Positions 1 to 36,793 of a stretch of 64,000 nucleotides of DNA are shown here, one piece after another. The DNA lies in assembly GCA_031261485.1 (NCBI GenBank), contig JAISJO010000100.1, positions 4,491 to 68,490 on the forward strand. The letters are read 5' to 3'. The translations under genes and the position numbers were made by a program. Below the pieces are notes generated by a model. That model was not told where the DNA came from. It did not search any database and was given only the letters and a program-made list of their open reading frames with translations. How positions within the stretch are numbered: the first letter of the stretch is position 1; every line of letters begins with the position of its first letter. The DNA comes from Propionibacteriaceae bacterium (GTDB lineage Bacteria; Actinomycetota; Actinomycetes; Propionibacteriales; Propionibacteriaceae).

Positions 1-972
1 ATTGGCAACGGAATCGGCAATCTGGCTGCTGGGAACGCCGTCGTGTTCAACGCGCATCCCGGCGCGAAAGCGACCTCACGGCGCACAGTCGAGTTGGTCA
101 ACGAAGCCATCACCGAGGTCGGAGGACCGGAGAACCTCTTCGTCATGGTCGCGGACCCAGATCTTCAGACCTTGGACGACATCATGGCGCATCCTGCTGT
201 GAAACTCCTTGTCGGCACAGGTGGACCGGCCATGGTCCATACCCTGATGACATCGGGCAAGAAGGTCATCGCAGCGGGCGCGGGCAATCCTCCCTCCATT
301 ATCGACGAGACGGCCGACCTCAAGAAGGCGGCTGCCGGTGTACTCGGGTCGGCTTCTTTCGACAACAACCTCTTGTGCATCGCGGAGAAGGAAATCTTCG
401 TGGTCGACGCCATCTTCGATGAGTTCATGGCCGAGTTCGAGAAGGCCGGGGCGTACATCCTCACCCCCGAGCAGGGCCAATCCTTGCGCGAAATATGCCT
501 TGTCCAGACTCCCGACGGTTGGGTCGCCAACAAGGCATGGGTCGGCAAGATGGCCAACAAGATTCTGGAAGCAGCCGGGATTCTCATCGACTCCGACCCG
601 CGCATCGCGGTGTACGAGACTGGCTTCGACGACCCGCTGGTCCACACCGAGCAGATGATGCCCATTATCCCCATTGTTCGTTGCGCGACCTTCGAGCAGG
701 CGATGGAGTGGGCGTACGAGGCTGAGCACGGCTGTGTGCATTCGGCGTCGATCTGGTCGAAGGACATCGACCATGTGACTGCGTTCGGCACCCTCATCAA
801 CACCACTATCTTTGTGCAAAATGGGGGGACCATGGCCGCCTTTGGTATCGGGGGCTCCGGCACCAATGCGCCAACAATCGCCACGCCCACAGGCGAAGGT
901 GTCACAGGTCCCCAGAGCTTCGTTCGTCGTCGCCGCTTCTGCATGGCTGACGGTGGCAACTATCTTCTGTGA
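1..972 (+). CDS. CoA-acylating aldehyde dehydrogenase (PduP/EutE-like), 5' end outside the window
   Basis: Frame 1 is open from base 1 (IGNGIGNLAAGNAVVFNAHP...). Motifs AGAGNPPSIIDETADL and NNLLCIAEKEIFV are typical of acylating ALDHs with a catalytic Cys. The stop overlaps the next gene. Confidence 0.85.
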   Translation: MGNGIGNLAAGNAVVFNAHPGAKATSRRTVELVNEAITEVGGPENLFVMVADPDLQTLDDIMAHPAVKLLVGTGGPAMVHTLMTSGKKVIAAGAGNPPSIIDETADLKKAAAGVLGSASFDNNLLCIAEKEIFVVDAIFDEFMAEFEKAGAYILTPEQGQSLREICLVQTPDGWVANKAWVGKMANKILEAAGILIDSDPRIAVYETGFDDPLVHTEQMMPIIPIVRCATFEQAMEWAYEAEHGCVHSASIWSKDIDHVTAFGTLINTTIFVQNGGTMAAFGIGGSGTNAPTIATPTGEGVTGPQSFVRRRRFCMADGGNYLL

Positions 973-980
973 GGTCAGAC

Positions 981-1895
981 ATGACTATCGAATCATTTCC
1001 CGATATCGCACGAACAGTCCAGGCGGCGCCCCGCAAGGCCCGTGTCGCCATCGTGTCCGCCAACGACCGGCACACCGTGGAGAGCGCTGTGCTGGGGCAG
1101 AAGGACGGCCTCATTGAGGCCATACTCATCGGCGACGACACGTCGATTCGCTCCCACCTCGACGAACTAGGGGAGAGCCCGTCGGACTACACCATCGTGA
1201 CCGCTGAGGGCAACGAAGACGCTCTGGCACAAGCCGTGGCCATGGTCCACTCCGGTGACGCGACCATCTTGATGAAGGGGCAGTTGGAGACCGGCGACTT
1301 CATGCGGGCCATCCTTGACCGTGCCAATGACTTGCGGCGCAGCCCTGTCTTGTCAGTGGCGGGCCTCTACGCTGTCGAGCGTTACCACAAGCTCATCGCG
1401 GTGTCGGACCAGGCCATCAACACCTACCCCGACCTGGACCAGAAGGCGGCCATCACGCGCAATGCGGTCACATTGCTCCACGCCATCGGGGTGGAGCGGC
1501 CCAAGGTCGCCATCTTGGCTGCTGTCGAGAAGGTCAATCCGAAGATGAAAGAGACCGTCGACGCGGACGCCCTCAAGCAGATGAACGTTGCCGGAGAGAT
1601 AGCTGGGTGTGTTATCGACGGGCCCCTGTCTTTCGACATCGCAACGATGCCTGAGGCGGCCCAGGTCAAGGGGTATGCCTCTGAGGTCGCCGGTGACGCT
1701 GACCTGCTCATCGTCCCTGACCTGGTCTGTGGCAATGTCTTGGTCAAGGCGCTGACTGGGTTCGCGGGTGCGTTGACAGCGGGGACGGTCTTGGGAGCGG
1801 TCGTGCCGGTGGTCCTTGTGCCTCGTTCGGCTGAGGCTTCTGACAAGTACTATTCGCTCGCACTGGCAGCCCTCAGGGCGCAGCAAGGACTGTGA
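981..1895 (+). CDS. ptb: phosphate butyryltransferase / phosphotransacylase family
   Basis: MTIESF...RVAIVSANDRHTVESA...LMKGQLETGDFMRAIL...DGPLSFD match the Ptb/Pta fold. GAGG lies 6 nt before the ATG at 981; an alternative GTG at 969 overlaps the upstream stop. Confidence 0.8.
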   Translation: MTIESFPDIARTVQAAPRKARVAIVSANDRHTVESAVLGQKDGLIEAILIGDDTSIRSHLDELGESPSDYTIVTAEGNEDALAQAVAMVHSGDATILMKGQLETGDFMRAILDRANDLRRSPVLSVAGLYAVERYHKLIAVSDQAINTYPDLDQKAAITRNAVTLLHAIGVERPKVAILAAVEKVNPKMKETVDADALKQMNVAGEIAGCVIDGPLSFDIATMPEAAQVKGYASEVAGDADLLIVPDLVCGNVLVKALTGFAGALTAGTVLGAVVPVVLVPRSAEASDKYYSLALAALRAQQGL

Positions 1896-1896
1896 C

Positions 1897-2997
1897 ATGT
1901 ACACGATTCTTGCTATCAACCCTGGTTCCACTTCGACGAAGGTCGCGGTCTTTGAGGACGAGCACGAGGTCTTGTCCCGCAACGTCGCCCACGACCCGGC
2001 AGAGCTCAGTGCATTCGCGGATATCCAAGACCAACTGGTCTACCGCAAAGAGGCAGTGGAGCATGTCCTCGCCATCGACCACATCGACCTGTCCAGCATC
2101 GACATCTTCGTCGGACGCGGCGGTGGTCTCGTGCCGGTCAAGTCTGGCGCCTACGAGGTCTCGCCCCGGCTGCTCCAAGACGCATCCAAGGGCATGGCCG
2201 GTCAGCATCCCGCCCAACTCGCTTCCCAGATTTGCGACCTCTACGTCAAGCAATACGGTGGCGTCGCGTATATCGTCAACGCTCCTGACGTGGACGAGTA
2301 TGACGAGATTGCCCGTGTCAGCGGACTGAAAGACATCGTCCGGCAGTGTCACATGCACACCCTCAACCAAAAGGAAATCGCCCTGCGATACTGCGCTGAC
2401 AACGGAATTGACTATTACGGGGTTAACCTGATCATCGCGCACATGGGAGGCGGCATCTCTGTCGCGGCCCACCGCCGAGGTGCCATGGTCGACGGCAACG
2501 ACATCATCAAGGGCGAGGGACCGATGATGCCAAACCGTGCTGGTTCCTTGCCATCGCTGGACCTGTTTGCCCTGTGTTACTCGGGCAAGTACACCCAGAA
2601 AGAAATGAAGGATCGCCTCTCCCGCACTGGTGGTCTCATGGACCATCTGGGTATCGATGACGCGCGGGAGATTGAACGGCGCATCGCGGACGGTGATGAG
2701 TACGCCAAGCTCGTCTACGAGGCGATGCTCTACCAGGTGGCCAAGTGCGTGGGGTCTGCGGCGGCGGTCCTCAAGGGTTGTGTCACGGGCATCATCCTCA
2801 CTGGTGGTATGGCGAACAGCGCCTATGTCACCCGCTACATCAGTGACTATGTCGCGTGGATCGCGCCTGTGACGGTGATGGCGGGGGAGTTCGAGATGGA
2901 GGCCTTGGCTGCTGGCGCTCTGCGCGTGGCACGAGGCGAAGAAACGGCCCAACAATACGACGGAATCCCAGTATGGACGGGATTTACCAAGAAATGA
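1897..2997 (+). CDS. buk: butyrate (short-chain acyl) kinase
   Basis: The N-terminus MYTILAINPGSTSTKVAVFEDE and the motif IIAHMGGGISVAAH are classic Buk/ASKHA signatures. The ATG at 1897 overlaps the ptb stop. Confidence 0.9.
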   Translation: MYTILAINPGSTSTKVAVFEDEHEVLSRNVAHDPAELSAFADIQDQLVYRKEAVEHVLAIDHIDLSSIDIFVGRGGGLVPVKSGAYEVSPRLLQDASKGMAGQHPAQLASQICDLYVKQYGGVAYIVNAPDVDEYDEIARVSGLKDIVRQCHMHTLNQKEIALRYCADNGIDYYGVNLIIAHMGGGISVAAHRRGAMVDGNDIIKGEGPMMPNRAGSLPSLDLFALCYSGKYTQKEMKDRLSRTGGLMDHLGIDDAREIERRIADGDEYAKLVYEAMLYQVAKCVGSAAAVLKGCVTGIILTGGMANSAYVTRYISDYVAWIAPVTVMAGEFEMEALAAGALRVARGEETAQQYDGIPVWTGFTKK

Positions 2998-3018
2998 ACA
3001 AGAGAAAGGAGTGAGAGA

Positions 3019-4986
3019 ATGTACGAGAAACTGTTCTCTCCGATCACTATCGGGGGACTAGCGGTACCGAACCGCGTAGTCATGACAGCAATGGGCAATC
3101 ATATGGCTTTGCCAGGCGGAGAAGCCTCAGACATTGATGTCGAGTTTTATGGGGCACGCGCCAAAGGTGGTGTGGGTCTCGTCATCACTGAGTGCATGAC
3201 GATTGACTATGAGCATGGGAAGGGCAACTTCGGCCAAATGTCGGCTGACGATGACCGTTTCATCCCAGGACTGCGCCGGGTCGCCGATGCGGTCCACGCC
3301 CACGGCTCAGTCATCGCCGCGCAGATCTACCATCCTGGCCGCCAAGGCATCGCCGCCCTCAACGGTGTGGAATCCATGCCATCGGCCAGCACAGTCGAAT
3401 GCCAGGCTGTCCATCAGCCAGTCCATGAGATGACCAAGGAAGAAATCGGGGATGTCGTCACCAAGTTTGGTGCGGCGGCGAAGCGTCTGAAGGAGGCTGG
3501 GTTCGACGGTGTCGAGGTCCACGCTGCTCATGGTTACCTCATCACGCAGTTCATCAGTTCCTACACCAACAAGCGCGAGGACGAGTACGGCGGTTCGCTG
3601 GAGAATCGTATGCGCTTGGGCAAGGAGATCATGGAGGAGATTCAGGCCCAGTGCGGCAAGGACTTCCCCATCATCGTCAGGGTGTCCGTAGATGAGCACT
3701 TGGAGTTCGTTGGGGCCCCCGGCGCTGGCATCACGCTCGCCGAAGGCATCGAGGTGTGCAAGTTGTTCGAGCAGTACGGCGCGTGCTGCCTCGACGTGAG
3801 CTGTGGCATTTACGAGACGATGAACACCGCGTGGGAGCCGATTGGTTTCGACGAAGGCTGGAAGATCGACGCTGTCGAAGCGGTAAAGAAAGAAGTAGGC
3901 GTTCCTGTCATCGGTGTGTCGGTCATCCGCAACCCCGACTACGCCGAGCAGATTCTGGAACAGGGTAAGTGCGACCTCGTGGGTTCTGCGCGTCAGTTCT
4001 TCGCTGACCCCGACTGGGCAGTCAAAGCCCAGCAAGGTCGGGTGTGCGAGATTCGTCGCTGCATCTCCTGCATGTACTGCATGGAAACCCTCATGGAAAC
4101 CGACATTACCCATGTCACCGTGGCGTGTGCCATCAACTGGCAGGGCGGGCGCGAGAAGGAGTACGGCGACGACGCCCTCGTCAAGGACGGCGCTGGTCGC
4201 ACGGTTGCCATCATCGGTGGCGGACCTTCAGGCCTTGAGGCCGCGATTGTCCTGGCCAAGCGCGGGTTCAAGCCCATCGTCTTCGAGAAGAAGACAGAAC
4301 TCGGCGGACAACTCCTCTATGCCTCCAAGCCACCAAAGAAAGAGAAAATGCTATGGCTGCTGGATTACCAGAAGGCCATGATTGAGAAGCTGGGCGTCGA
4401 GGTCCGGTTGGGTGTTTCCCCCACGATTGACGAGCTGAAAGCGCTCGACCCCTATGGCGTCATTGTCGCACAGGGCTCGTCGCCGATTCTGCCCGCCTCG
4501 ATTGAGGGGTTGGACGGCGCGAACGTATACACACCGCTGCAGATCCTCGGTGAGGAAGTCAGCTTGGAAGGTAAGAGTGTTGCCATCATCGGTTCGGGCA
4601 TGACCGGGCTTGAGACAGCGGAATACCTGGCCTCCAAGGGCGCCAAGGTCTCCATCTTCGAGATGCAGCCTGAGATTGGCCCAGGACTGTTCTTCCAGAA
4701 TCTCATCGACATCATGAGTCGTCTGGGAGCTCACGAACCGGAAATCCACACGCAGCACACCCTCGTCAAGCTCGACTCCGACACTGCCTGGTTCGAGAAT
4801 GAGGGCGAGACGAAGACGTACACCGCTGATGCGTTCGTCGTGTCGCTCGGTGTGGCGCCGAACACGACCCTGGTCGATGCGATCAAGGAGCACTTCCCCA
4901 AGGCCGTCGTCGTTGGAGACGCAGTCGCGGGCGGACGGCTCGCCCCGGCCATCGGCACAGGTTACGTGGCGGGTTTCTCGCTCTAG
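3019..4986 (+). CDS. 2-enoate reductase / 2,4-dienoyl-CoA reductase family flavoenzyme (OYE domain, Fe-S, FAD/NAD domain)
   Basis: An OYE motif (HAAHGYLITQFISSYTNKREDEYGGSLENR), a Cys cluster (CISCMYCMETL...ACAINW) and two Rossmann GxGxxG motifs (IIGGGPSGLE, IIGSGMTGLE) are present. An AGGAG RBS precedes the start. Confidence 0.85.
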   Translation: MYEKLFSPITIGGLAVPNRVVMTAMGNHMALPGGEASDIDVEFYGARAKGGVGLVITECMTIDYEHGKGNFGQMSADDDRFIPGLRRVADAVHAHGSVIAAQIYHPGRQGIAALNGVESMPSASTVECQAVHQPVHEMTKEEIGDVVTKFGAAAKRLKEAGFDGVEVHAAHGYLITQFISSYTNKREDEYGGSLENRMRLGKEIMEEIQAQCGKDFPIIVRVSVDEHLEFVGAPGAGITLAEGIEVCKLFEQYGACCLDVSCGIYETMNTAWEPIGFDEGWKIDAVEAVKKEVGVPVIGVSVIRNPDYAEQILEQGKCDLVGSARQFFADPDWAVKAQQGRVCEIRRCISCMYCMETLMETDITHVTVACAINWQGGREKEYGDDALVKDGAGRTVAIIGGGPSGLEAAIVLAKRGFKPIVFEKKTELGGQLLYASKPPKKEKMLWLLDYQKAMIEKLGVEVRLGVSPTIDELKALDPYGVIVAQGSSPILPASIEGLDGANVYTPLQILGEEVSLEGKSVAIIGSGMTGLETAEYLASKGAKVSIFEMQPEIGPGLFFQNLIDIMSRLGAHEPEIHTQHTLVKLDSDTAWFENEGETKTYTADAFVVSLGVAPNTTLVDAIKEHFPKAVVVGDAVAGGRLAPAIGTGYVAGFSL

Positions 4987-5060
4987 AGACACCCAACACC
5001 TCGAAGGAGCGGGGCGCTGTCTGGAGGCGCCCCGCACCAACCACAACATAAGGAGTTACT

Positions 5061-6161
5061 ATGAAAATCCAAGCAGCCATCACCCACGAGGCAGGCAAGC
5101 TCGCCATCGAAGAAGCCGAGGTCGCCACTCCCAAGGCAACCGAAGTGCTTGTCAGAATGGTCGCAGCCGGGGTCTGCCACACTGACGCCGCTGGCATCCA
5201 ACAGTTCATCCCCGTGACATTGCCCGCTATCTTCGGGCACGAGGGCGTGGGCGTCGTGGAGGAGGTTGGCGAAGCTGTCGATGACCTGAAGCCGGGGGAC
5301 AGGGTCATCATGACGTACCCGTCTTGCGGATATTGCGAGAACTGCCGTGACGGACATCCGTTCGCCTGCGAGTCCTTCAACTTCCTGGCCTTCTCGGGCA
5401 CGTTCAAGGACGGCACCAAGCGCTTCAGCCAGAACGGAGTGGATATCTCGTCCTTCTTCGGGCAGGGCTCGTTTGCGACGTACGCCATTGTCGATTCACG
5501 CAACGCCATCAAGGTCGAGGGGGTGGATGACGAAGAACTGGCGTACATGTGCTCGCTCGGCTGCGGTGTGCAGACCGGCGCTGGCATGGTGTTCAATGTG
5601 TTCAAGCCACGTCCGGCCACATCCATTGCCGTCTTTGGCTGTGGAGGGGTCGGCATGGCCGCGCTCATGGCCGCGAAACTGGCGGGTTGCGTCAAGATCA
5701 TCGCCGTTGACGTCAATCCTGATCGTCTGGCACTGGCCAGGGAGATAGGCGCCACCGACACCGTCAACCCCAAGGAAGTCGAAGACACTGTGCAGGCCAT
5801 CAAGGACCTGTCCGGGGGCGGCGTGCATTACGCGGCAGAGTCCTCCGGCATCCCGGCGCTCACCCTCACTGCTGTCCAGTCGCTGCGTCGACTCGGCCAT
5901 GCGTGCGTCGTCTCCGTCACGGGACCAGGCACCATCGAGTTGCCCATCGAACCCGCTCTGATGAACCCCAGTTGCACTCTGACTGGCATCACCGAGGGTG
6001 GCGCGAATCCGAAGGTCTTCATCCCGCAACTAGCGGCGTATTACAAAGCTGGGCTCTTGCCCATCGACCGGCTCGTCAAGTTCTACGACTTCGCCGACAT
6101 CCAACAGGCCTTCGATGATTCTCACGCTGGCGTGACCATCAAACCGATTCTGAGGTTCTGA
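5061..6161 (+). CDS. Zn-dependent (aryl-)alcohol dehydrogenase
   Basis: GVCHTDAA, GHEGVGVVEEVG, CGYCENCRDG (structural Zn) and GCGGVGMAA (NAD) match the MDR family. An AAGGAG RBS is present. Confidence 0.85.
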   Translation: MKIQAAITHEAGKLAIEEAEVATPKATEVLVRMVAAGVCHTDAAGIQQFIPVTLPAIFGHEGVGVVEEVGEAVDDLKPGDRVIMTYPSCGYCENCRDGHPFACESFNFLAFSGTFKDGTKRFSQNGVDISSFFGQGSFATYAIVDSRNAIKVEGVDDEELAYMCSLGCGVQTGAGMVFNVFKPRPATSIAVFGCGGVGMAALMAAKLAGCVKIIAVDVNPDRLALAREIGATDTVNPKEVEDTVQAIKDLSGGGVHYAAESSGIPALTLTAVQSLRRLGHACVVSVTGPGTIELPIEPALMNPSCTLTGITEGGANPKVFIPQLAAYYKAGLLPIDRLVKFYDFADIQQAFDDSHAGVTIKPILRF

Positions 6162-6242
6162 TTCCAACAATCTCTTGGAGCGGGCGGACTCTTTCTGTAT
6201 CCAACAACCGCCCGCTCCCACCCAAGAAAGGACAAAGACATC

Positions 6243-7097
6243 ATGGGTAAAGCAATACTAAAGGCTGGCTTGATTGGCGGCTGCTACGGTCTCCTCTGCG
6301 AGGCACTCTACTGCATCTATCGGGCCATCCTCGGCCCAGAAAACACGTATCTGTCGGCATTCTCCCTGGTCACAGGTGGTCTGATCGTCGGGATTCTGTA
6401 TGTCTGCGGCATCATGCAGAAGATCGAGCCTCATGGCGGATTCGGTTCCATCATCCCCCTGATCGGGTTGACCTCGGCAGTGGCAGGCGGCATCAACGCC
6501 ACGCGCAAGAATGAGAAGAAGACGTTCATCGACTCCTTCTGGAGCGCTGGCAAACCATCAATGATTATGCTCATGTCGGGCCTGGTTGTCTCGATGATTC
6601 TGGCGATGGTCTTCACTCAACTCATGCCGAATGCCGATGCTGGAGTGCCTCCGCTCCTCATCGCCACACCGGCTCCCGTGGCGATCTGGCTGGAGTTCAT
6701 CTTCTCCTTCCTCATCATGGCTGTCATTGGCGCGGTGGGACAGATCTTCCTCATGCTCCTCAAGCCGACATTCACCGGCGTCATGGGCATGTTGTTCGCC
6801 GCGTACGTCCTCGGCTGCATCCTCGCCATGTTCGGCGTGATCCAGGCGCTGGCTGTCCTCGGCCATGGCGGCATGGACGTCCCGATCCTCGGTGGCGGCG
6901 AGTTCGTCTTCACGTCGATCTGGCTTGGTGAAGGCGGCTTCGCACCGTGGTTCGTGACATTCGTCAGACTCACCATCTTCTCCGGAATCATCGCATCGCA
7001 GTACCTGTGGGGCGGCCTTGCAGCAGCCATTCGCGGCAAGCTCCATCCCGAAGAAGTACTTCCTGACGAGGTCGCGGCAGAACCTGTCGCGGCATAG
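6243..7097 (+). CDS. polytopic membrane protein, tentatively SpoVAC/SpoVAEB-like
   Basis: Multiple hydrophobic spans. The segment KIEPHGGFGSIIPLIGLTSAVAGGINATRKNE resembles the SpoVAC signature RIGQFAGAGSAVPVTGFANS...EYKSEG. This comparison is from memory and was not searched. Confidence 0.55.
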   Translation: MGKAILKAGLIGGCYGLLCEALYCIYRAILGPENTYLSAFSLVTGGLIVGILYVCGIMQKIEPHGGFGSIIPLIGLTSAVAGGINATRKNEKKTFIDSFWSAGKPSMIMLMSGLVVSMILAMVFTQLMPNADAGVPPLLIATPAPVAIWLEFIFSFLIMAVIGAVGQIFLMLLKPTFTGVMGMLFAAYVLGCILAMFGVIQALAVLGHGGMDVPILGGGEFVFTSIWLGEGGFAPWFVTFVRLTIFSGIIASQYLWGGLAAAIRGKLHPEEVLPDEVAAEPVAA

Positions 7098-7123
7098 AGG
7101 GACGGCATAGAGGGACGGCATAG
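7091..7123. repeat. 13-bp tandem duplication (ggcatagagggac x2.5) spanning a stop codon
   Basis: Read directly as ggcatagagggac ggcatagagggac ggcatag. Confidence 0.85.
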
Positions 7124-7139
7124 CCACACCGCTGCGCCT

Positions 7140-7205
7140 GTGGAGACCCGGCTCGACCCAAGGGGGCTGGGTCTCCACGTTCTCCCCTGCGAACATCGCA
7201 GGGGA
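7140..7205 (+). terminator. two consecutive GC-rich hairpins between the SpoVAC-like gene and the MFS gene
   Basis: The first is gtggagaccc-N19-gggtctccac (7140..7178). The second is tcccctgcga-aca-tcgcagggga (7183..7205). There is no clear U-tract. Confidence 0.5.
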
Positions 7206-29206: not shown

Positions 29207-30283
29207 TTAGCGGTTCTTGAATAGAGTGAACAGTCGGCTTTCGCGGACGGTCCACACTGCCAGGACGGCTCCGATGAGTGACGCTGCTCCTCCGGTGACG
29301 ATGGGACGCATGCCCAGGAGGGCGATATGTCGGGTTTCTGCTTGTGCTGGGTACGCGCCGACTACAACGCCGACGAGCGCAAGGATGCACGCGGGAATGA
29401 TCCAGGACAGGGCCTCGACTAGGCACTGCACACCGAGGAAAGACTTGGGGATGCCCGCGTGGAGATCGCTGGCGTACTCCAGACGCCTCGTCGCTGTGGC
29501 GGCAATACCGATGAGGAAACCAGCAGCGGCTGTTGCTAGCGGTATCCATCGGGTCAGGCGCGTGGCGAAGCCGGTGTACCCGTCGAAAGAGGACGCGAAA
29601 GTGGGGTTGGCCTGGCTGAGTTTCACGTTCTGTGCTGTCATCATGGGGTCGCCCATGGCGGGCAGGACAGCCGTGTACGTGAGCATGGCGGTGTTCTGAC
29701 TGGGCGGCCAGATGCGTATCCAGCACTCGTCGAAAGGGGCCTGACTTGGGGTGACGGACAGAGCCGCGAAACCCAACCCGGAACGGCGGCCGTCATCGGG
29801 ATAGGGGTACGTCCCGCCGACAAGGACTGTTCCGTTGGCCAAGCCGAGAGTGTCGGGAGCGGTCAGGCCATAGCGAGCAGCCACGTTGTCGGAGACAACC
29901 AGTCCACCGGAGCCGGTTGCCGAGGCAACGCCCAAGAATCCTGGTGTCACTGAATACAGAGGTATGGGCGCTCGCGGCAGGGCGAGAGTGCGCAACCCGT
30001 CTCGCTCGGCTCGTGCGGCCCCGGCGGCCAATACCGAATCGGCGCTGCCCAATGCGTCACAAGCCTCGCCGGAAATCTGGCCGGGCGCTTCGAGAACCCA
30101 GGTGGAGCCATTGTGTTGGAGGTAGTCGGCCGCGTCATTCGTGAGGGAAGTCACCCAGGTTGTGTCCAGCCATGCGCCTGCCGCGACGACGGCCAGCAGG
30201 AGCAGGCACCAACGCACCATGTGCGTCGTCCCCGACCACACGTTGCGCCAGGCTTCCCGGAAGGCCTCTCGGAAGCGAATCAT
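29207..30283 (-). CDS. MacB/FtsX-type ABC transporter permease
   Basis: TM1 is followed by an extracytoplasmic domain of about 220 aa and three C-terminal TMs. The start overlaps the ATPase stop by 4 nt. Confidence 0.72.
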   Translation of the reverse strand: MIRFREAFREAWRNVWSGTTHMVRWCLLLLAVVAAGAWLDTTWVTSLTNDAADYLQHNGSTWVLEAPGQISGEACDALGSADSVLAAGAARAERDGLRTLALPRAPIPLYSVTPGFLGVASATGSGGLVVSDNVAARYGLTAPDTLGLANGTVLVGGTYPYPDDGRRSGLGFAALSVTPSQAPFDECWIRIWPPSQNTAMLTYTAVLPAMGDPMMTAQNVKLSQANPTFASSFDGYTGFATRLTRWIPLATAAAGFLIGIAATATRRLEYASDLHAGIPKSFLGVQCLVEALSWIIPACILALVGVVVGAYPAQAETRHIALLGMRPIVTGGAASLIGAVLAVWTVRESRLFTLFKNR

Positions 30284-31017
30284 GTTGATTGCTCCGCAAA
30301 GACGCTGGATGTGTCTGGGCCAGAGGGGACGGCTGGGTGGCTGACTCCCTCGGATTCGGCCCCTATGCCGAGAACATTGCTCGCAGGTTCGGAAGAGTCG
30401 CTGTGCGCCACTTCTCCGGCCAGGTCGATGACGTCACTACACATGGCGCGGGTGTGGGGGTCATGGGTGGCAATGACGACGATGCCTTGTCCGGCAAGAC
30501 TGCTCATGACGGCGTTCACTTCGTCTGCGGTGGTGCGATCAAGTTGGGCAGTCGGTTCGTCGATGAGGAAGACGTCAGGGGACGTCGCCAGTCCGCGCGC
30601 CAGCATGAGGCGTTGCGCTTCACCGCCCGAGAGCGCAGCGAATGGGGAGTCGGCGATGCCTTCCAAGTGGAAGCGAGTGAGCATGTCCATTGCTGCAAGA
30701 TCAGCGTCTTTGCGCTTGAAACCTTGTCCGATGTAGGCAAGGGCGACATGGTCGAGAGCGGTTCTTCGGGGGACGCCGTGAGGGTTCTGGAAGACCCAAC
30801 GAATGGTGTCAGCGTGTCGAGTCACTGTGCCTTCACTCGGGCCCAACCATCCAGCAATGATAGAAAGCAAAGTGGACTTGCCCGATCCGGATGGGCCAGT
30901 CACGGCGTACACATGCTGAGGCACCAAGTCGAAGGAGAAATCGCGGAAGAGCCAATGGTCATGCACGAACCAATGCCCCAATCCTTGTGCGGTGACGCGC
31001 GCGTCGAGGTTGGGCAT
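30280..31017 (-). CDS. ABC transporter ATP-binding protein (MacB-type)
   Basis: Walker A GPSGSGKST, signature LSGGEAQR, Walker B VFLIDEPTAQLD and an H-loop ATHD are present. Confidence 0.9.
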   Translation of the reverse strand: MPNLDARVTAQGLGHWFVHDHWLFRDFSFDLVPQHVYAVTGPSGSGKSTLLSIIAGWLGPSEGTVTRHADTIRWVFQNPHGVPRRTALDHVALAYIGQGFKRKDADLAAMDMLTRFHLEGIADSPFAALSGGEAQRLMLARGLATSPDVFLIDEPTAQLDRTTADEVNAVMSSLAGQGIVVIATHDPHTRAMCSDVIDLAGEVAHSDSSEPASNVLGIGAESEGVSHPAVPSGPDTSSVFAEQST

Positions 31018-32057
31018 CAGCAGGCCAGGTCGTTGGGCGGGTACAGGTCCACGCGAGCCGGAGGTGTGCCGGTGAAGGTGACATAGGAGGAGCCGATCTG
31101 CGAGGAGACCACCGACACGCGCAGCGGATTACCATCCCCGAGCACACAGGCCGAGCCGGAGGAGGGTCGGATGGCGGCGGCGGGGACGACAGACACGGGC
31201 ACAGGTGTGGCGAGCGTCCATTTGCCCTGGATGGAGTTGAGGGAGGAAGGGTCCATGGCATACACAATTGCTGGTGTGGTGGCGAGAGTGGACAGCGAGT
31301 CGGCATCGGTGATGGTGCCGTCCTGATTCGCGGCAATGGGGACGTCGTTGACTGTCAAGACTCTATCTCCGGCGAGGAAACCCGACAGGTCAGTTGTGAT
31401 ACGGGCGGTCACGAGAGTGGAAGCGAAGTGCGCCACGACTTGTCCCGTGGTGACCTGGGCAGCTTTGGGCACGTCACAGGAGGCGACCCCAACCGAGGGA
31501 GCGGGTAGCCAGGCGACCATAGACAGAGGAATTGTCCATCCAGGAATATCGACCCGAGCGGCACCGAGGCTGACGGCCAGATCAGCGAATGCGTTGGTGA
31601 GGGCGAGGGTCGCTGCCGCATAGGCATCCCCCGAGAAGACGCCCAAACGGGAGAGTTCACTTGCGACGGCTACGACATCGGCTCCTTGCATCCCGACGAC
31701 GATGTCGCGCCACATCGGCGTGGTCGTTGCCAGGGACACGACCGGGACGCCGTTGACCGCGAAGAGGGATTGGCCGGATGTAGATGTCCCGCCAAGGGCG
31801 CAGGACATGGACGAGACGACTCCAGAGGCGGGGGAGACCAGAGTAGATTGGGGCCCCATCGTTGCGGCAAGACTCACAGTTTGAGGGTCAGTGAAATCCA
31901 CATGGGTGACTTCCGCCGAGCCTTCCTGAGTGGGTTTGGCGAGGATGTCGGGCGGGTCATCCCACAGCCAAGCTGCTGCCCCCGCAGCCCCCGCGACGAG
32001 CAAGCACAGTCCGGTCGCCAGTGCGACGAGAACCCGAGGTCCTTTTCCTTTAGCCAT
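31017..32057 (-). CDS. membrane-anchored periplasmic-adaptor-like protein with an embedded peptidoglycan-binding-like segment
   Basis: An N-terminal TM is followed by a barrel-sandwich-like segment (GVVSS...GQSLFAVNGVPVVSL). The stretch MQGADVVAVASELSRLGVFSGD resembles a PG_binding_1 helix pair. The stop abuts the ATPase start (shared base at 31017). Confidence 0.62.
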   Translation of the reverse strand: MAKGKGPRVLVALATGLCLLVAGAAGAAAWLWDDPPDILAKPTQEGSAEVTHVDFTDPQTVSLAATMGPQSTLVSPASGVVSSMSCALGGTSTSGQSLFAVNGVPVVSLATTTPMWRDIVVGMQGADVVAVASELSRLGVFSGDAYAAATLALTNAFADLAVSLGAARVDIPGWTIPLSMVAWLPAPSVGVASCDVPKAAQVTTGQVVAHFASTLVTARITTDLSGFLAGDRVLTVNDVPIAANQDGTITDADSLSTLATTPAIVYAMDPSSLNSIQGKWTLATPVPVSVVPAAAIRPSSGSACVLGDGNPLRVSVVSSQIGSSYVTFTGTPPARVDLYPPNDLAC

Positions 32058-32233: not shown

Positions 32234-32839
32234 CTACTGAGCATGCAATGGGTCGTTGTTACACTCCCAGAACTTGGGATTACCCAATCCGCCAGGGAAG
32301 GTGAAGGATTCATCAATGGAATCATTGTCATAGTCTTCTGCAGTGTAACCCTCGGGTTCCAACCCGACCCTGACAAGGCACTCAGCCATCAGCACGCTGC
32401 CATCAAGCCCAGGGGGGTGAAGGACCTCATAACGTGTCATGACGAGTGCGAACCATCCGGTCTCTCCCCCACTGGAGCATTGGGTCTCCAGTTGAGCCAC
32501 TTCTTCTGCCATCATTCCTTCCGGAGCCTGGAATCCCTGTGAGCCATCATCGTTGACAGTGATGTCATTCATGCCTGCTGCCGAGAGGCAATCTATGTAG
32601 GTCTGCTTGACCGCGGCAAGTTCTTCATCAGTGACAACACCATCTGCCAAGGCTTCCACGGCCAGCGGTGCTGTTACCTCTCCACCTTCGAGCACGTGGG
32701 AACTTGGACTAACACCGTCCGAGTTACCAGTTGATCCCGAACATCCCGAAAGGAGTAGAACTGGCGCAACGAGAAAACAAATGACAACTGTTCTCACGCG
32801 GACTCGCTGCAAGCAAGACATCCGATAATGCGGCGACAT
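32234..32839 (-). CDS. predicted lipoprotein, four-Cys DPLHAQ-tail family, paralog 1
   Basis: Lipobox LLLSGC. Shared motifs are ADGVVTDEE, CLSAAG, GWF, ECLVRVGLEPEGYTAEDY and the C-terminal WECNNDPLHAQ. Confidence 0.7.
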   Translation of the reverse strand: MSPHYRMSCLQRVRVRTVVICFLVAPVLLLSGCSGSTGNSDGVSPSSHVLEGGEVTAPLAVEALADGVVTDEELAAVKQTYIDCLSAAGMNDITVNDDGSQGFQAPEGMMAEEVAQLETQCSSGGETGWFALVMTRYEVLHPPGLDGSVLMAECLVRVGLEPEGYTAEDYDNDSIDESFTFPGGLGNPKFWECNNDPLHAQ

Positions 32840-32870
32840 GAAGTTAACTCGATCTGCAATGTCAAATCAC

Positions 32871-33191
32871 TCAACGCCATACAATCTGGCCTAATCCCGA
32901 CCTGGCTCCAGAACGGTAGATGGAGGGCAAGACCGTGTTTTGGGACCAGTTCCCCTTCGTGACGAATGGGCCTGTGTAGAAATACTGGAATGTGCTTTGC
33001 TCATAAGCCGCGACGGTGGTGTTGCAGTTTACATTCTTGGCGCTGTACTGAGCAATCTCGACTTGGCAGGTGGGACTAGAGGCGGGCATAGACATGGCTG
33101 ATGCGGTCACGACCCCGGCGACGCCGAGGCTGGATGCAGCTAGGGCTGCTGCCGATGCGGCGATTGCGATGCGTTTCTTGAAGGTTTTCAT
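32871..33191 (-). CDS. small secreted two-Cys protein (106-aa precursor, about 74-aa mature)
   Basis: A Sec signal peptide (MKTFKKRIAIAASAAALAASSLGVAGVVTASA) precedes a mature part with Cys at PTCQV and NVNCN. An AAGGAGAA RBS lies 3 nt before the ATG. GC looks lower than in the neighbours. Confidence 0.65.
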   Translation of the reverse strand: MKTFKKRIAIAASAAALAASSLGVAGVVTASAMSMPASSPTCQVEIAQYSAKNVNCNTTVAAYEQSTFQYFYTGPFVTKGNWSQNTVLPSIYRSGARSGLGQIVWR

Positions 33192-33211
33192 GGGTTCTCC
33201 TTATGTAGTTT

Positions 33212-33231
33212 GGATTGACTAGTGTCAATCC
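33212..33231. promoter_or_regulatory. perfect palindrome GGATTGAC-TAGT-GTCAATCC upstream of the small secreted protein gene
   Basis: 8-bp arms lie 21-40 nt upstream of the ATG at 33191, inside the only markedly AT-rich intergenic stretch of the window. Confidence 0.55.
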
Positions 33232-33409
33232 TTAGGTTGAGAGGGTCAGGTCTGCTTCTTTCGAAATCCGCTTGTTCCCCATCTGCGACGCTACTGGGGG
33301 GGCAAGTGAGTGTCAAGACCCGATAGGTAACAGTCTCATAACACTTATTGATAGTTTAGTTTACTAACAAATACCTGTGCCTTGATGGACATTGGTTGTT
33401 CGGCGACCC

Positions 33410-34057
33410 TCACTGGGCATGCAGCGGGTCGAAGTTACACGCACGGAACTTTTGTCCTTCGGGAGTTTCTTGATTCTCGAGATAGGGAATGAAATGGGCA
33501 TTCTCCAAGTCCGACATGTACTGCTCGGCGGTGTATCCCTCAGATTCCAGACCAACTCGGACTAGGCATTCCACCATGAGGTCAGCGATATCCTGATTCT
33601 CAGGATTCCTCGTCATTTGGGTGTAGAGCCAGCCTATGGTGGACCAGCTCGTCTGCACCTCACATTGTTGCTGCAGCTCACCGGTTCGTTGGGTGAGAAC
33701 TTCAAACGACTCGCCATCCTCTTGGGGTGGACGAATGTTTGCCGAGCCGTCAGGGTTGAGTTCCAAGACCACACATCCCAGGTTCTCCAGACACTCCTTC
33801 TGCGCCGCTCTGACCTCTTCCATTTCCTCGTCAGTGATGACACCATCCGCCAAGATGGCCTTGGCTACCGGACTAGACACGTTTTCATATGCTTGTTGTA
33901 ACTCGATAGCCCACGGCCCGGAAAAGCCGGGGGTGGCATCATCCACTTCCGAAGCGCACCCAACCAAGCCCAGTACTAACGCCACAGAGGTGGCTATCCA
34001 AAGGGTCAACATGGCGCGCACACGATGGCTATCCGCCACTTGTCGTCTGAATGCCAT
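33410..34057 (-). CDS. predicted lipoprotein, four-Cys DPLHAQ-tail family, paralog 2
   Basis: Lipobox GLVGC. Motifs are FSGPW, ADGVITDEE, ECLENLG, GWL, ECLVRVGLESEGYTAEQY and the C-terminal ACNFDPLHAQ. Confidence 0.7.
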   Translation of the reverse strand: MAFRRQVADSHRVRAMLTLWIATSVALVLGLVGCASEVDDATPGFSGPWAIELQQAYENVSSPVAKAILADGVITDEEMEEVRAAQKECLENLGCVVLELNPDGSANIRPPQEDGESFEVLTQRTGELQQQCEVQTSWSTIGWLYTQMTRNPENQDIADLMVECLVRVGLESEGYTAEQYMSDLENAHFIPYLENQETPEGQKFRACNFDPLHAQ

Positions 34058-34141
34058 CTTGTTCCTTACCGCCAGTGTCAGGCTATCGCATTTGTAGTGA
34101 CCGCCCTGGTGGAGCCGGGGGTGTTGGCCATTCGGTGGTCC

Positions 34142-34756
34142 CTACTGGGCGTGGAGGGGGTCGTTCTGGCATTCCCAGAGCTTCGGGTTGTCGGCTATGT
34201 CGGAGAACGCATTGTCGCCACTGTATTCGTTGTTCAAGTCGGCAAGACTGTACCCTTCTGGTCGCAATCCGAGCCTGACTAGGCAGTCTGCGGTCAACTG
34301 GTCTTTGTCGACATTGTCGGGGTTGGTACGCACATTGTTGTACAGCATGTTGACTGGGAACCACCCTGTGTCGTCCTCGCATGCCCTCTCTTGAGCATTC
34401 ACAGTTGCTGCGTCGCTGCCCGGAGGAATGGAAATCCCGAGTTGGCCGTACTCGCTGATTCGAACCTCGGTCAGGCCAGCAGCCTCAAGGCACTCACGAA
34501 ACCTGTCATTGATCTCGGCTGCCTCAGCCTCAGTGATGACTCCATCGCACAGTATCTCCCGGACGATGCTCACCGAAGTGTGCGCATACGCCTTCGAGAA
34601 GTCATCCTTCCATGGCCCCGAGAACTCAGGCATGTCGGTCGCCAACACACAGGACATTGCCGGCAAGGATGGTGTGTCTGGTACAGGAGACGAGCAGCCC
34701 GACAGCGCACCTATGGCCATGCATAGGCACGCAAGCAGGTGAATCCTCCGTCTCAT
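34142..34756 (-). CDS. predicted lipoprotein, four-Cys DPLHAQ-tail family, paralog 3
   Basis: Lipobox ALSGC. Motifs are FSGPW, CDGVITEAE, ECLEAAG, GWF, DCLVRLGLRPEGYSLADL and the C-terminal WECQNDPLHAQ. Confidence 0.7.
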   Translation of the reverse strand: MRRRIHLLACLCMAIGALSGCSSPVPDTPSLPAMSCVLATDMPEFSGPWKDDFSKAYAHTSVSIVREILCDGVITEAEAAEINDRFRECLEAAGLTEVRISEYGQLGISIPPGSDAATVNAQERACEDDTGWFPVNMLYNNVRTNPDNVDKDQLTADCLVRLGLRPEGYSLADLNNEYSGDNAFSDIADNPKLWECQNDPLHAQ

Positions 34757-34892
34757 AGCAACACTGTAGTCCTATTGGGTATGCCGCAGGCCGCTATCCT
34801 GGGCCGTTTCCCTGTGCGAAGTCGCGGGGCGCAGGATCTACTCGACCAACATCACCGGCAGTATCCACTCGACCTGGCATCCCCTCCACATA

Positions 34893-35028
34893 ACCCATCC
34901 GCAAACGTGCCCGATTTGTGCCTTGTTGTCGGTTGAGGATGGGTAATGTCGCCAAAATCGGCCGTGAGACGACATTTCCCATCCGTAAACGTCGCGGACG
35001 GGTCCGAGCGGTCCGTTTGAGGATGGGC
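34893..35028. repeat. two tandem copies (about 85-bp period) of a 52-nt hairpin-forming element
   Basis: Copy 1 (34893..34944) is ACCCATCCGCAAACG-N22-CGGTTGAGGATGGGT. Copy 2 (34977..35028) is TCCCATCCGTAAACG-N20-TCCGTTTGAGGATGGGC. The outer stem CCCATCC/GGATGGG is conserved. Confidence 0.8.
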
Positions 35029-35138
35029 TATGCGTGAAAAGTGGAAGTGTCCACTCGGCCTGCCGCAACTCATCTTCTTGAGTCCGTACGGCGGTCGTCG
35101 TTCGGGCTGTGCGCGAACCTGTGGCATAGGCTGGTGCA

Positions 35139-35522
35139 ATGAACATCGCAATTTCCACGAGCAGCGCCCCCGCCGCCATCGGACCGTACTCCCAAGCAGT
35201 GGACACAGGAAGACTCATCTTTGTCTCCGGGCAACTGGGGTTGGACCCGGCAACCGGGGACTTTGCTGGGGCAGGAGTGGCCGAACAAGCAAAGCAGGCG
35301 CTCTCCAACCTGGAAGCGATTCTGGTCGAAGCGGGGTTGGGACTTACCGATGTGGTCAAGGCGACCGTCTTCCTGAAGGACATGGCGGACTTTGCCGTTG
35401 TCAATCAGGTGTACGCCGAGCGCTTCACTGGCCCGATTCTGCCCGCACGTTCAGCAGTACAGGTCGCGGCGCTACCCAAGGGTGGCCTGGTCGAGATTGA
35501 AGCCATCGCGGTGCGAGGCTAG
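35139..35522 (+). CDS. ridA: RidA family reactive-intermediate deaminase
   Basis: [20 protein letters not shown] and [20 protein letters not shown] are YjgF/RidA signatures. Confidence 0.88.
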
Positions 35523-36793
35523 TCAGTGATTCCCTGGCCGCGTGGCGGGTGTTCCCACACGGATGAGATTGGCAAGTAGTGCAGGCGAGAACCCAGAGTC
35601 ATGCCTTCGGAACCGGTTCCCAGGACAATGCCAGCGATGAGTCGGTCTCCAAGTCGTTCGGCAAAGTACCGCAGACTTGTGAAGGCGCTCGCTGGGTGGC
35701 TGGCGGTGGTCTTGACTTCGACAAGGACGACGCGGCCATCCGCGTATTCGATGACAAGGTCCACTTCGGTCCCAGTCTTGTCTCGATAGTGGAACAGGCG
35801 TGCGCGTTCAGCGGACCACGATAACTGTTTCGCCAATTCTGAGGCCACGAAACCTTCCATGAGTCCGCCAATGGCTGGATTGGCAAGTACGGGCGCTAGT
35901 TGTTGTTCGGTCAGGGCGCTCAACCAGGCTGCCACTGCTGAGTCAGTGACCCATGCTTTGGGGCGCCCGATTTCTCTCCGCGTCAGATTCGCGGTCCATG
36001 GATGTACCTCGCTGACAAGGAAGAGGTTCTTCAGTGTGTCGAGGTAATTGGTCATGGAAGACTCGGACACACCTGCTTGATTGGCGACACGTGACTTCAC
36101 CAACTCACCCGACTGATTCGCCGCAAGCAGACGAAGCACTGACTCCAGTCTGTTCGGGGACAAGTGGCGAATGTCCTGTGCGTCTCGCTGCAATAGACCG
36201 AGGACATAGGTGTCCAGCCACATGTCTCGATGGTGGTCAGTCATTGTTCGAAGTTCTGGGTATCCACCTCGCAATATCGCCTGAACGTACTGTTGTCGTG
36301 CCCACGATGAATGGACCTCCGCCGGCTTGAATGAGTCGCCACGAATCCAGTGAGCGAAGTCTTCGACCTGTCCTGCCAACTCACCTTGGCTCAAGCCACA
36401 TAGAGTCACGTTGATTGAGCGCCCAACGAGTGAATCGGGGCTGCCAGGCATGTGAAGGAGGTCAGACGAGCCTGTGAGAATGAACCGTCCAGGGCGTCGC
36501 AGACGGTCAACGGCGGCCTTGACGGCAAGAATCGCTTTGGGTTCGCGCTGTACTTCGTCCAGCACCACCGTCTCGTCGGGATACTGTTCAAGGAAAGCTC
36601 GTGCGTCCTCGGCGAGAATCGTCCGTACGTCATCATCATCCAAGGTGAACATCCTGTGGGGTCGGTTGGCGACGAGCTGAGCAGCGAAAGTGGATTTTCC
36701 GACCTGCCTGGCACCTTGGATGACCAAAAGGGGGAAGGCATCGAGGGCACTAGTTGCGGTGTCGTAGAGATTGCGTCTGAGGAGCTTTTCCAT
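35519..36793 (-). CDS. AAA-superfamily ATPase with a DUF4143-type C-terminal domain
   Basis: Walker [11 protein letters not shown], Walker B VVLDEVQ and a C-terminal segment with a restriction-endonuclease-like pattern ([19 protein letters not shown]) match COG1373-like proteins. Confidence 0.78.

Follow-up and report, generated by a model that had tools for sequence, protein, structure and literature searches.

A trio of acidic lipoproteins encoded with a small secreted protein and a MacB/FtsX-like transporter in a propionibacterial operon: a possible bacteriocin-handling system

Three lipoprotein genes are located on the minus strand of a 64,000-nt stretch of DNA from a Propionibacteriaceae bacterium (assembly GCA_031261485.1, contig JAISJO010000100.1, positions 4,491 to 68,490; the whole stretch is called the window here), the source of which is a termite gut metagenome. 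They are followed by genes for a putative membrane-anchored adaptor, an ATP-binding cassette (ABC) transporter ATPase and a predicted four-helix permease, and a gene for a small Sec-secreted protein lies between paralogs 2 and 1 (Table 1). That the three lipoproteins form a family came from an initial annotation made by eye from the letters, which spanned the three genes and left the 106-aa small gene within the same interval unmentioned. Here, we describe the lipoprotein family, the operon in which it is found and the role that this context suggests for it.

Table 1. Genes and non-coding features of the lipoprotein operon, in window coordinates
Feature	Position	Strand	Description
Lipoprotein paralog 3	34142-34756	minus	204 aa; signal peptide MRRRIHLLACLCMAIGALSG, followed by C; lipobox LSGC; family hidden Markov model (HMM) E = 3e-64
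Lipoprotein paralog 2	33410-34057	minus	215 aa; lipobox LVGC; ribosome-binding site AAGGAA; family HMM E = 3e-60
Lipoprotein paralog 1	32234-32839	minus	201 aa; lipobox LSGC; no FSGPW; directly 3' of the small gene
Small Sec-secreted protein	32871-33191	minus	106 aa, about 74 mature; 2 Cys; net charge +3; 14% aromatic; candidate bacteriocin-like partner or cargo
Putative membrane-anchored adaptor	31017-32057	minus	346 aa; one N-terminal transmembrane (TM) helix at 6-32; peptidoglycan-binding-like insert; conserved synteny
ABC transporter ATPase	30280-31017	minus	245 aa; PF00005 91.2 bits (cut-off 25), E = 1.2e-25
Predicted four-helix permease	29207-30283	minus	358 aa; ~200-aa extracytoplasmic loop between TM1 and TM2, from hydropathy
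AT-rich spacer	33192-33409	minus	218 nt, GC 0.47; upstream of the small gene; palindrome TTGACACTAGTCAA at 33215-33228
Operon upstream region	34757-35138		382 nt to the divergent RidA gene; ACGTTTRCGGATGGG in two exact copies and one degenerate copy

The lengths and lipoboxes assigned to the three proteins in the initial annotation agree with the open reading frames and signal regions. In all three paralogs, a positively charged n-region and a hydrophobic h-region precede a lipobox that fits the pattern [LVI][ASTVI][GAS]C of bacterial lipoprotein signal peptides, at residue 30 (LSGC), 31 (LVGC) and 18 (LSGC) for paralogs 1, 2 and 3. Pairwise BLASTP alignments covered almost the entire proteins at 33-35% identity (E = 8e-33, 4e-34 and 1e-30), showing that the whole-length alignment made by eye was not an artefact, and the shared motifs and the four cysteine residues are all present in the three-way alignment. 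Judged from this similarity, the three window genes are true paralogs. The FSGPW motif had been noted in paralogs 2 and 3; it is indeed missing from paralog 1, yet it is the consensus of the family as a whole.

The 3' ends that had been quoted for the three copies match the DNA exactly, and the sole DNA repeat common to them is a stretch of 17 nt. Since nothing longer is shared at the DNA level, recent amplification of the trio is ruled out and the duplications are old. The earlier description of the copies as well-diverged duplicates that have been kept intact is further supported by paralog 2, whose orthologs in other Propionibacteriaceae-like contigs are 47-70% identical to it. Paralog 1 and the lipoprotein of a related locus, L013 (related loci are given numbers with the prefix L), are reciprocal best matches at 47% identity and both lie 3' of a small gene of the same type, while paralog 3 has no ortholog above about 40% identity.

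In the database gene calls, paralog 3 has 171 aa and paralog 1 has 153 aa, with starts downstream of the lipobox so that the signal peptide is lost. We favour the long reading frames for both genes because the lipobox is conserved across the family, the strict pattern being matched by 129 of the 143 full-length members. Starts called downstream of the lipobox are probably a systematic mis-annotation of the family, and a family model would correct such calls. The lipoprotein genes have a GC content of 0.54-0.57, compared with 0.60-0.64 for the ABC genes and 0.60 for the whole window. Their mature products are extremely acidic, with net charges of -26, -25 and -20 for paralogs 1, 2 and 3 and a pI of about 4.05-4.12; the median net charge of mature lipoproteins in the family is -18.5.

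How large the family is was shown by an exhaustive profile search of 1.84 billion cluster representatives (clusters at 50% identity), which found 1,894 clusters at E <= 1e-3, 1,111 at E <= 1e-10 and 262 at E <= 1e-30. The names attached to family members are all 'hypothetical protein', and so are those of the only 26 relatives returned by a word-index search, whose named sources are Propionibacteriaceae metagenome-assembled genomes (MAGs). In an alignment of 101 diverse members, numbered as in paralog 1, residues C84, C121, C154, C193 and P197 are invariant, and the lipobox cysteine, D66, E73, G89, N141, P142, L155, Y165 and D196 are conserved in at least 90%. As the four invariant cysteine residues are extracytoplasmic, two disulfides per lipoprotein are plausible. 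The consensus C-terminus of the family is C-x-x-D-P-L-G. The tail after D-P is variable and usually has 4-7 residues, LGL, AHA, LGI and LHA being the commonest sequences. The DPLHAQ terminus that had been called invariant is found in the three copies and in some close relatives, and across the family only C-x-x-D-P is kept. Because the tail after D-P varies family-wide, we read DPLHAQ as a local variant of a variable tail and reject the proposal of an invariant C-terminal peptide.

That the lipoproteins have a defined fold, as had been suggested, is supported by the AlphaFold2 model of paralog 1, which consists of seven helices and a two-strand hairpin. Within the mature domain, each block of ten residues from 51 to 200 has a predicted local distance difference test (pLDDT) score of about 85-98. 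The initial annotation did not recognise the family, and neither did our searches. Pfam, NCBIfam and PADLOC gave no significant match for the window lipoproteins, Pfam gave none for the 101 family members, and a sequence search of the PDB with the lipoprotein profile found nothing below E = 0.7. Foldseek with the paralog 1 model likewise found no relative in the PDB (best E = 1.6, TM-score <= 0.2) or in BFVD (best E = 0.42).

The genes 3' of the trio appear to encode the parts of a transporter. We read the 346-aa protein as a membrane-anchored, peptidoglycan-binding adaptor. In the window, this protein has nothing significant in Pfam or NCBIfam, the HlyD_D23 match being weak (E = 0.068). Individual orthologs match PG_binding_1 at 2e-4, and one of them matches HlyD_3 at E = 7e-3. 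Compared with the PDB, the ortholog profile finds peptidoglycan-binding domains at about 1e-3 and biotinyl/lipoyl domains weakly (E = 0.15-1.5), so the resemblance to the HlyD/lipoyl barrel-sandwich fold is weak. Among the best NCBIfam matches of the window ATPase is the ABC model of the lactococcin-972 group, TIGR03608, at a score below the curated cut-off. Hydropathy places the TM helices of the permease at about 21-45, 246-265, 282-315 and 327-346. This arrangement of four helices with a large domain between TM1 and TM2 is the MacB/FtsX (type VII) topology. No match to the window permease was found in Pfam, NCBIfam or the PDB, and its ortholog profile also found nothing in the PDB; two of the ten orthologs match MacB_PCD (PF12704; best E = 5e-6) and two match FtsX (PF02687; best E = 4e-3). 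PADLOC gave no match for the window proteins that were searched with Pfam and NCBIfam. Invariant cysteine residues are also found in the adaptor (C86, C194, C304 and C346) and in the permease loop (C75 and C187). Invariant cysteine residues in all extracytoplasmic partners suggest that the whole outer-face assembly may be stabilised by disulfides.

The association of the lipoproteins with these genes is conserved. In 19 of 22 assessable loci, the adaptor gene is found 3' of the lipoprotein gene or genes, together with the ABC genes where the contig extends far enough. The order lipoprotein(s), adaptor, ATPase and permease holds in loci from Microbacterium, Actinomyces, Propionibacteriaceae-like MAGs and Acidimicrobiia, and overlapping stop and start codons are frequent in the operon (e.g. 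L007, L021 and L022). Each locus has one to five lipoprotein copies, arising from both old and recent duplications. A metagenome scan for related loci found four loci.

Some loci depart from this pattern or have distinctive neighbours. In L014 (5947-7934), the lipoprotein gene comes after genes for a DrrA-like ABC ATPase, a 222-aa multi-pass protein and a helix-turn-helix regulator, which stand in place of the adaptor and the MacB-like set. L012, with a GC content of 0.30, carries two modules of one small gene and two lipoprotein genes. At 1-7205 of this locus, the modules are found beside TIR and SIR2_2/SIR2-STALD genes, a two-component system and a PT-HINT gene, and the whole is a conflict or defence island. 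In L027, the genes for five lipoproteins and the pump are present, and the stretch covered contains no bacteriocin gene; this array parallels the situation in Cutibacterium acnes clade II, where the lactococcin-972 gene is the only part of the island to have been lost (PMC4746626). In L018 (1-3864), Iron_transport, FtrD-like and MacB_PCD/FtsX genes lie upstream of a small gene, three lipoprotein genes, the adaptor gene and the ABC genes, a neighbourhood that recalls the iron-type transport functions described for the C. acnes lactococcin-972 island (PMC4746626).

The small secreted protein is the other recurrent partner of the family. In the window, its gene has a strong AAGGAG 6 nt upstream of the ATG. 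Relatives of it are found directly upstream of family lipoprotein genes in L001, L003, L007, L012 (two copies), L013, L016 and L018. The L013 protein is 59% identical to that of the window, and the two have in common the motif STFQYxYxGPxVxKxNxSQNTVLPSIY; with the 47% identity of the neighbouring lipoproteins, this shows that the small gene and the paralog-1-type lipoprotein gene have been inherited together. In Microbacterium, the motif of the small protein is ADGYCGYYSESRAVNSKSxC...GPYVTTGxTSWQ, and in the alignment of the small family the two cysteine residues and a GP(Y/F/W)V motif are in register. In L017, this slot has a secreted two-Cys reading frame whose product looks, by eye, like the L016 protein and is missed by the family profile, and L008 and L009 have other small two-Cys secreted reading frames in the same place. 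Mature small proteins have 61-89 aa, are 7-18% aromatic and rich in beta-formers, and carry a net charge of +1 to +7 in 9 of the 12 tabulated.

What kind of protein could occupy this slot is suggested by L019, where it is filled twice by lactococcin-972-family genes. The layout is one Lcn972 gene, three lipoprotein genes, a second Lcn972 gene, two lipoprotein genes, adaptor, ATPase and permease. One of the two Lcn972 genes scores above both cut-offs (35.2 bits for PF09683, cut-off 22; 33.9 bits for TIGR01653, cut-off 32.1), and the other scores at the cut-off for PF09683 (22.0 bits) and below it for TIGR01653 (26.0 bits). The composition of the small proteins is much like that of these Lcn972-like proteins of the same slot.

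Since the operon context and the gene for a small secreted partner are the guides to the family's likely role, we propose, with a probability of about one half, that the lipoproteins are immunity or handling proteins for a Sec-secreted bacteriocin-like protein and work together with the pump. The system would have five parts, namely a small, mostly cationic, aromatic-rich two-Cys protein, one to five lipoproteins, the adaptor, the ABC ATPase and the MacB/FtsX-like permease. The lipoproteins would be tethered to the membrane and extracytoplasmic, each with a compact, mostly helical domain of extreme negative charge that probably has two disulfides. Sec would export the small protein, which would act as a bacteriocin-like effector. 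The acidic lipoproteins, on the outside of the producer's membrane, could capture this effector or shield its envelope target, and the adaptor and ABC pump could expel it through ATP-driven movement of the large extracytoplasmic domain. The small gene next to paralog 1 may encode its cognate partner, and paralogs 2 and 3 may widen protection to the variants of neighbours, as 'orphan immunity' genes. That the lipoproteins are lipidated and form disulfides, that they bind the small protein and confer immunity, that this protein is antibacterial and that the pump cooperates with them are all things that we infer. In favour of the proposal, we count the opposite charges of the acidic lipoproteins and the mostly cationic small proteins, the conservation of the operon, the small partner gene and its joint inheritance with the paralog-1-type lipoprotein gene, the lactococcin-972-family genes in the small-gene slot of L019, the variation in copy number, the L027 array with its C. 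acnes parallel, the alternative ABC transporter in L014 and the conflict island in L012.

Several observations weigh against an immunity role. The argument that the small protein is a toxin draws on its position and composition only, and its AlphaFold2 model has a pLDDT of 38.8. The window small protein has no match at E <= 1 in Pfam or NCBIfam, including PF09683 and TIGR01653, and hhalign gives a probability of 0.1% for a relation between the small family and the Lcn972-like pair of L019, i.e. no detectable relation. The link to lactococcin 972 comes from this single locus, and one lipoprotein family occurring alongside two unrelated small-protein families is unexpected for a highly specific binder. 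Moreover, the strong conservation of the small protein among Microbacterium species is unlike that of a toxin in an arms race, and a small gene is missing from about 40% of the loci. Many genomes have a single lipoprotein gene in translational coupling with the adaptor gene, an arrangement that fits an obligate subunit of a machine equally well.

This last point leads to the main rival explanation, which we regard as unlikely on balance and as the one that most needs to be weighed against immunity. The lipoprotein could be an obligate subunit, structural or accessory, of an envelope machine of the MacB/FtsX type with a housekeeping role, and the triplication would then reflect subfunctionalisation. 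Such a machine could export or position an envelope component, or it could mature or release the small protein for an end other than antagonism, such as signalling or wall remodelling. A housekeeping machine would account for the four-gene core being kept with overlapping stop and start codons, often with a single lipoprotein copy and no small gene (L004, L020, L021 and L022), for the peptidoglycan-binding domain in the adaptor, and for the good conservation of the small protein within Microbacterium. It would also suit the housekeeping neighbours, the synteny with a DUF4143 ATPase and fructose-bisphosphate (FBP) aldolase, and the absence of the family from plasmids, among which a tblastn search with three family members found no match. 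Such a role is harder to reconcile with a copy number of one to five and the fast divergence of the paralogs, with bona fide lactococcin-972-family genes in the small-gene slot of L019, with a different type of ABC transporter beside the lipoprotein in L014, and with the presence of the family inside a conflict island of an organism of 30% GC.

The cysteine residues raise another alternative, that the lipoproteins assist, outside the cytoplasm, the folding or the thiol-disulfide chemistry of secreted and membrane partners that contain cysteine. The four invariant cysteine residues of the lipoprotein, and the conserved ones in the small protein (two), the adaptor (four) and the permease loop (two), speak for such a role. 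We nevertheless consider this role very unlikely, as the lipoproteins have no CxxC motif, no thioredoxin-like fold and no match to a redox family in Pfam or NCBIfam, and their cysteine residues are 33-39 residues apart at helix ends. Moreover, conserved cysteine pairs are common in secreted actinobacterial proteins generally.

Just as improbable is a lipoprotein that binds Ca2+ or another metal through the EF-hand-like acidic loop and has a functional C-terminal peptide, a combination that follows from motifs pointed out in the initial annotation. D66 and E73 of the DGV(I/V)T(D/E)xE loop are at least 90% conserved in an extremely acidic protein, and the protein usually ends 4-7 residues past C-x-x-D-P. 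The loop, however, fits only positions 5-12 of the canonical 12-residue EF-hand loop; positions 1 and 3 are E/A and L rather than acidic throughout, and there is a single copy per protein, so we reject the EF-hand. No EF-hand model of Pfam matched the window lipoproteins at E <= 1, a Foldseek match of the lipoprotein model to troponin C is noise (E = 3.4, TM-score 0.13), and the variable sequence of the tail leaves the functional C-terminal peptide unsupported.

The least probable explanations are that the lipoproteins are immunity proteins of the polymorphic-toxin or type VII secretion system type, for which a PT-HINT gene ~0.8 kb upstream of the L012 array would speak, although it occurs in this one locus and no toxin-domain genes are adjacent in the other loci examined, or that they are the substrate-binding protein of an ABC importer, which in Gram-positive bacteria is a lipoprotein but has a two-lobed fold of at least about 250 aa, whereas the family has about 150 structured, mostly helical residues in its mature domain, matches no substrate-binding-protein family in Pfam or NCBIfam, and is encoded beside a permease whose MacB/FtsX topology is not of importer type.

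Among known systems, the proposed immunity or handling system best fits, by functional analogy, the LanI plus LanFEG type of lantibiotic self-immunity and the ABC-based immunity to lactococcin 972. In LanI (NisI, SpaI) and LanFEG, as here, a surface lipoprotein is encoded beside a peptide gene and an ABC transporter, and the immunity genes can outlast the producer gene; there the lipoprotein captures and the pump expels, as we propose for the window. The lipoprotein domain of the window differs from LanI in being helical, highly acidic and, as we read it, disulfide-containing; Pfam, NCBIfam, the PDB search and Foldseek detected no sequence or fold kinship with NisI or SpaI. Unlike LanFEG, which is of the ABC-2 type, the pump here would be MacB/FtsX-like with a peptidoglycan-binding adaptor, and unlike a lantibiotic the small protein would be unmodified and Sec-dependent.

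The lactococcin 972 operon encodes a Sec-dependent bacteriocin, a multi-pass putative immunity membrane protein and an ABC ATPase (TIGR01653, TIGR01654 and TIGR03608). As in the window, ABC transporter genes come after the gene for a small Sec-secreted protein, and a further link is given by the L019 small genes, which match the Lcn972 models, and by the window ATPase, which has TIGR03608 among its best matches. Neither a lipoprotein nor an adaptor is, to our knowledge, encoded in the lactococcal operon. The window system further differs in that its small protein is outside the Lcn972 family, its ATPase is below the TIGR03608 cut-off and its permease has no detectable relation to TIGR01654. 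Lcn972 itself binds lipid II (PMC8538875).

MacB-type pumps such as YknXYZ of Bacillus subtilis, Spr0693-0695 of Streptococcus pneumoniae and MacAB of Escherichia coli consist of an adaptor, an ABC ATPase and a permease in which four helices accompany a large extracytoplasmic domain, and the putative adaptor, the ATPase and the predicted permease of the window operon would correspond to these. Such tripartite pumps protect against peptide toxins and antimicrobial peptides. The window permease and adaptor are too diverged from them for the Pfam thresholds, the adaptor here has a peptidoglycan-binding-like insert, and the lipoprotein family and the small secreted protein are additional. A further parallel is LprG-Rv1410c of mycobacteria, in which an actinobacterial lipoprotein is co-transcribed and cooperates with an efflux transporter, but there the fold is unrelated, the transporter belongs to the major facilitator superfamily, the substrate is a lipid, and both paralog arrays and a small secreted partner are lacking. 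The literature that we searched describes no lipoprotein that partners a lactococcin-972-type or MacB-type system in Actinobacteria.

Relative to known lipoprotein-plus-ABC immunity, the new elements would be the unrelated lipoprotein fold, the peptidoglycan-binding adaptor, the diverged MacB/FtsX-like permease and the new family of small proteins. Through this context, an unnamed family of about 1,900 clusters with no Pfam or NCBIfam model and no PDB or BFVD relative gains a concrete role that can be tested. If the small two-Cys proteins are bacteriocins, they would be a new class of unmodified Sec-dependent antimicrobials of Actinobacteria (including Microbacterium, Propionibacteriaceae and Acidimicrobiia), and coupling an acidic lipoprotein to a MacB-type pump would be a new immunity mechanism. 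If the lipoprotein is instead an obligate pump subunit, the operon would define a four-component architecture that is new among the type VII ABC transporters of monoderm bacteria. A bolder version of the immunity proposal, which we put forward tentatively and with the odds somewhat against it, is that these operons form an undescribed and widespread actinobacterial antagonism system. It would combine new disulfide-bonded Sec bacteriocins of ~60-90 aa, with no sequence relation to lactococcin 972 but able to exchange places with it in the operon, with hyper-acidic immunity lipoproteins of a new fold and a peptidoglycan-anchored MacB-like pump, and the tandem arrays would be a heritable immunity repertoire against the variants of neighbours.

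The non-coding parts of the locus hold two elements that may be regulatory. In the AT-rich spacer between paralog 2 and the small gene, the perfect palindrome TTGACACTAGTCAA is about 25 nt upstream of the start codon of the small gene, and this region may serve the small gene and paralog 1 as an operator or an internal promoter. Scans of the locus found no promoter-like site by consensus, no terminator-like site on the coding (minus) strand, and nothing for tRNA or Rfam. Upstream of the operon, ACGTTTRCGGATGGG is found at 34894-34908 (minus), 34978-34992 (minus) and 35013-35027 (plus), the degenerate copy having two mismatches. Three matches compare with 0.33 expected, yet 2 of 100 shuffles also gave three, and the sequence is absent from the other loci. 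A regulator may bind at these sites, or the sequence may be a small repeated element. The stretch is matched at about 85% identity by other contigs from the metagenome, and sequencing depth rises there.

The window operon is surrounded by housekeeping genes. Near its lipoprotein end, beyond the RidA gene, is a gene for an AAA_14/DUF4143 ATPase (35519-36793, minus). Genes for such an ATPase are also found in L010 (10066-11250) and L014 (8735-10003), at most about 1.5 kb from the lipoprotein genes and adjacent to them in L014.

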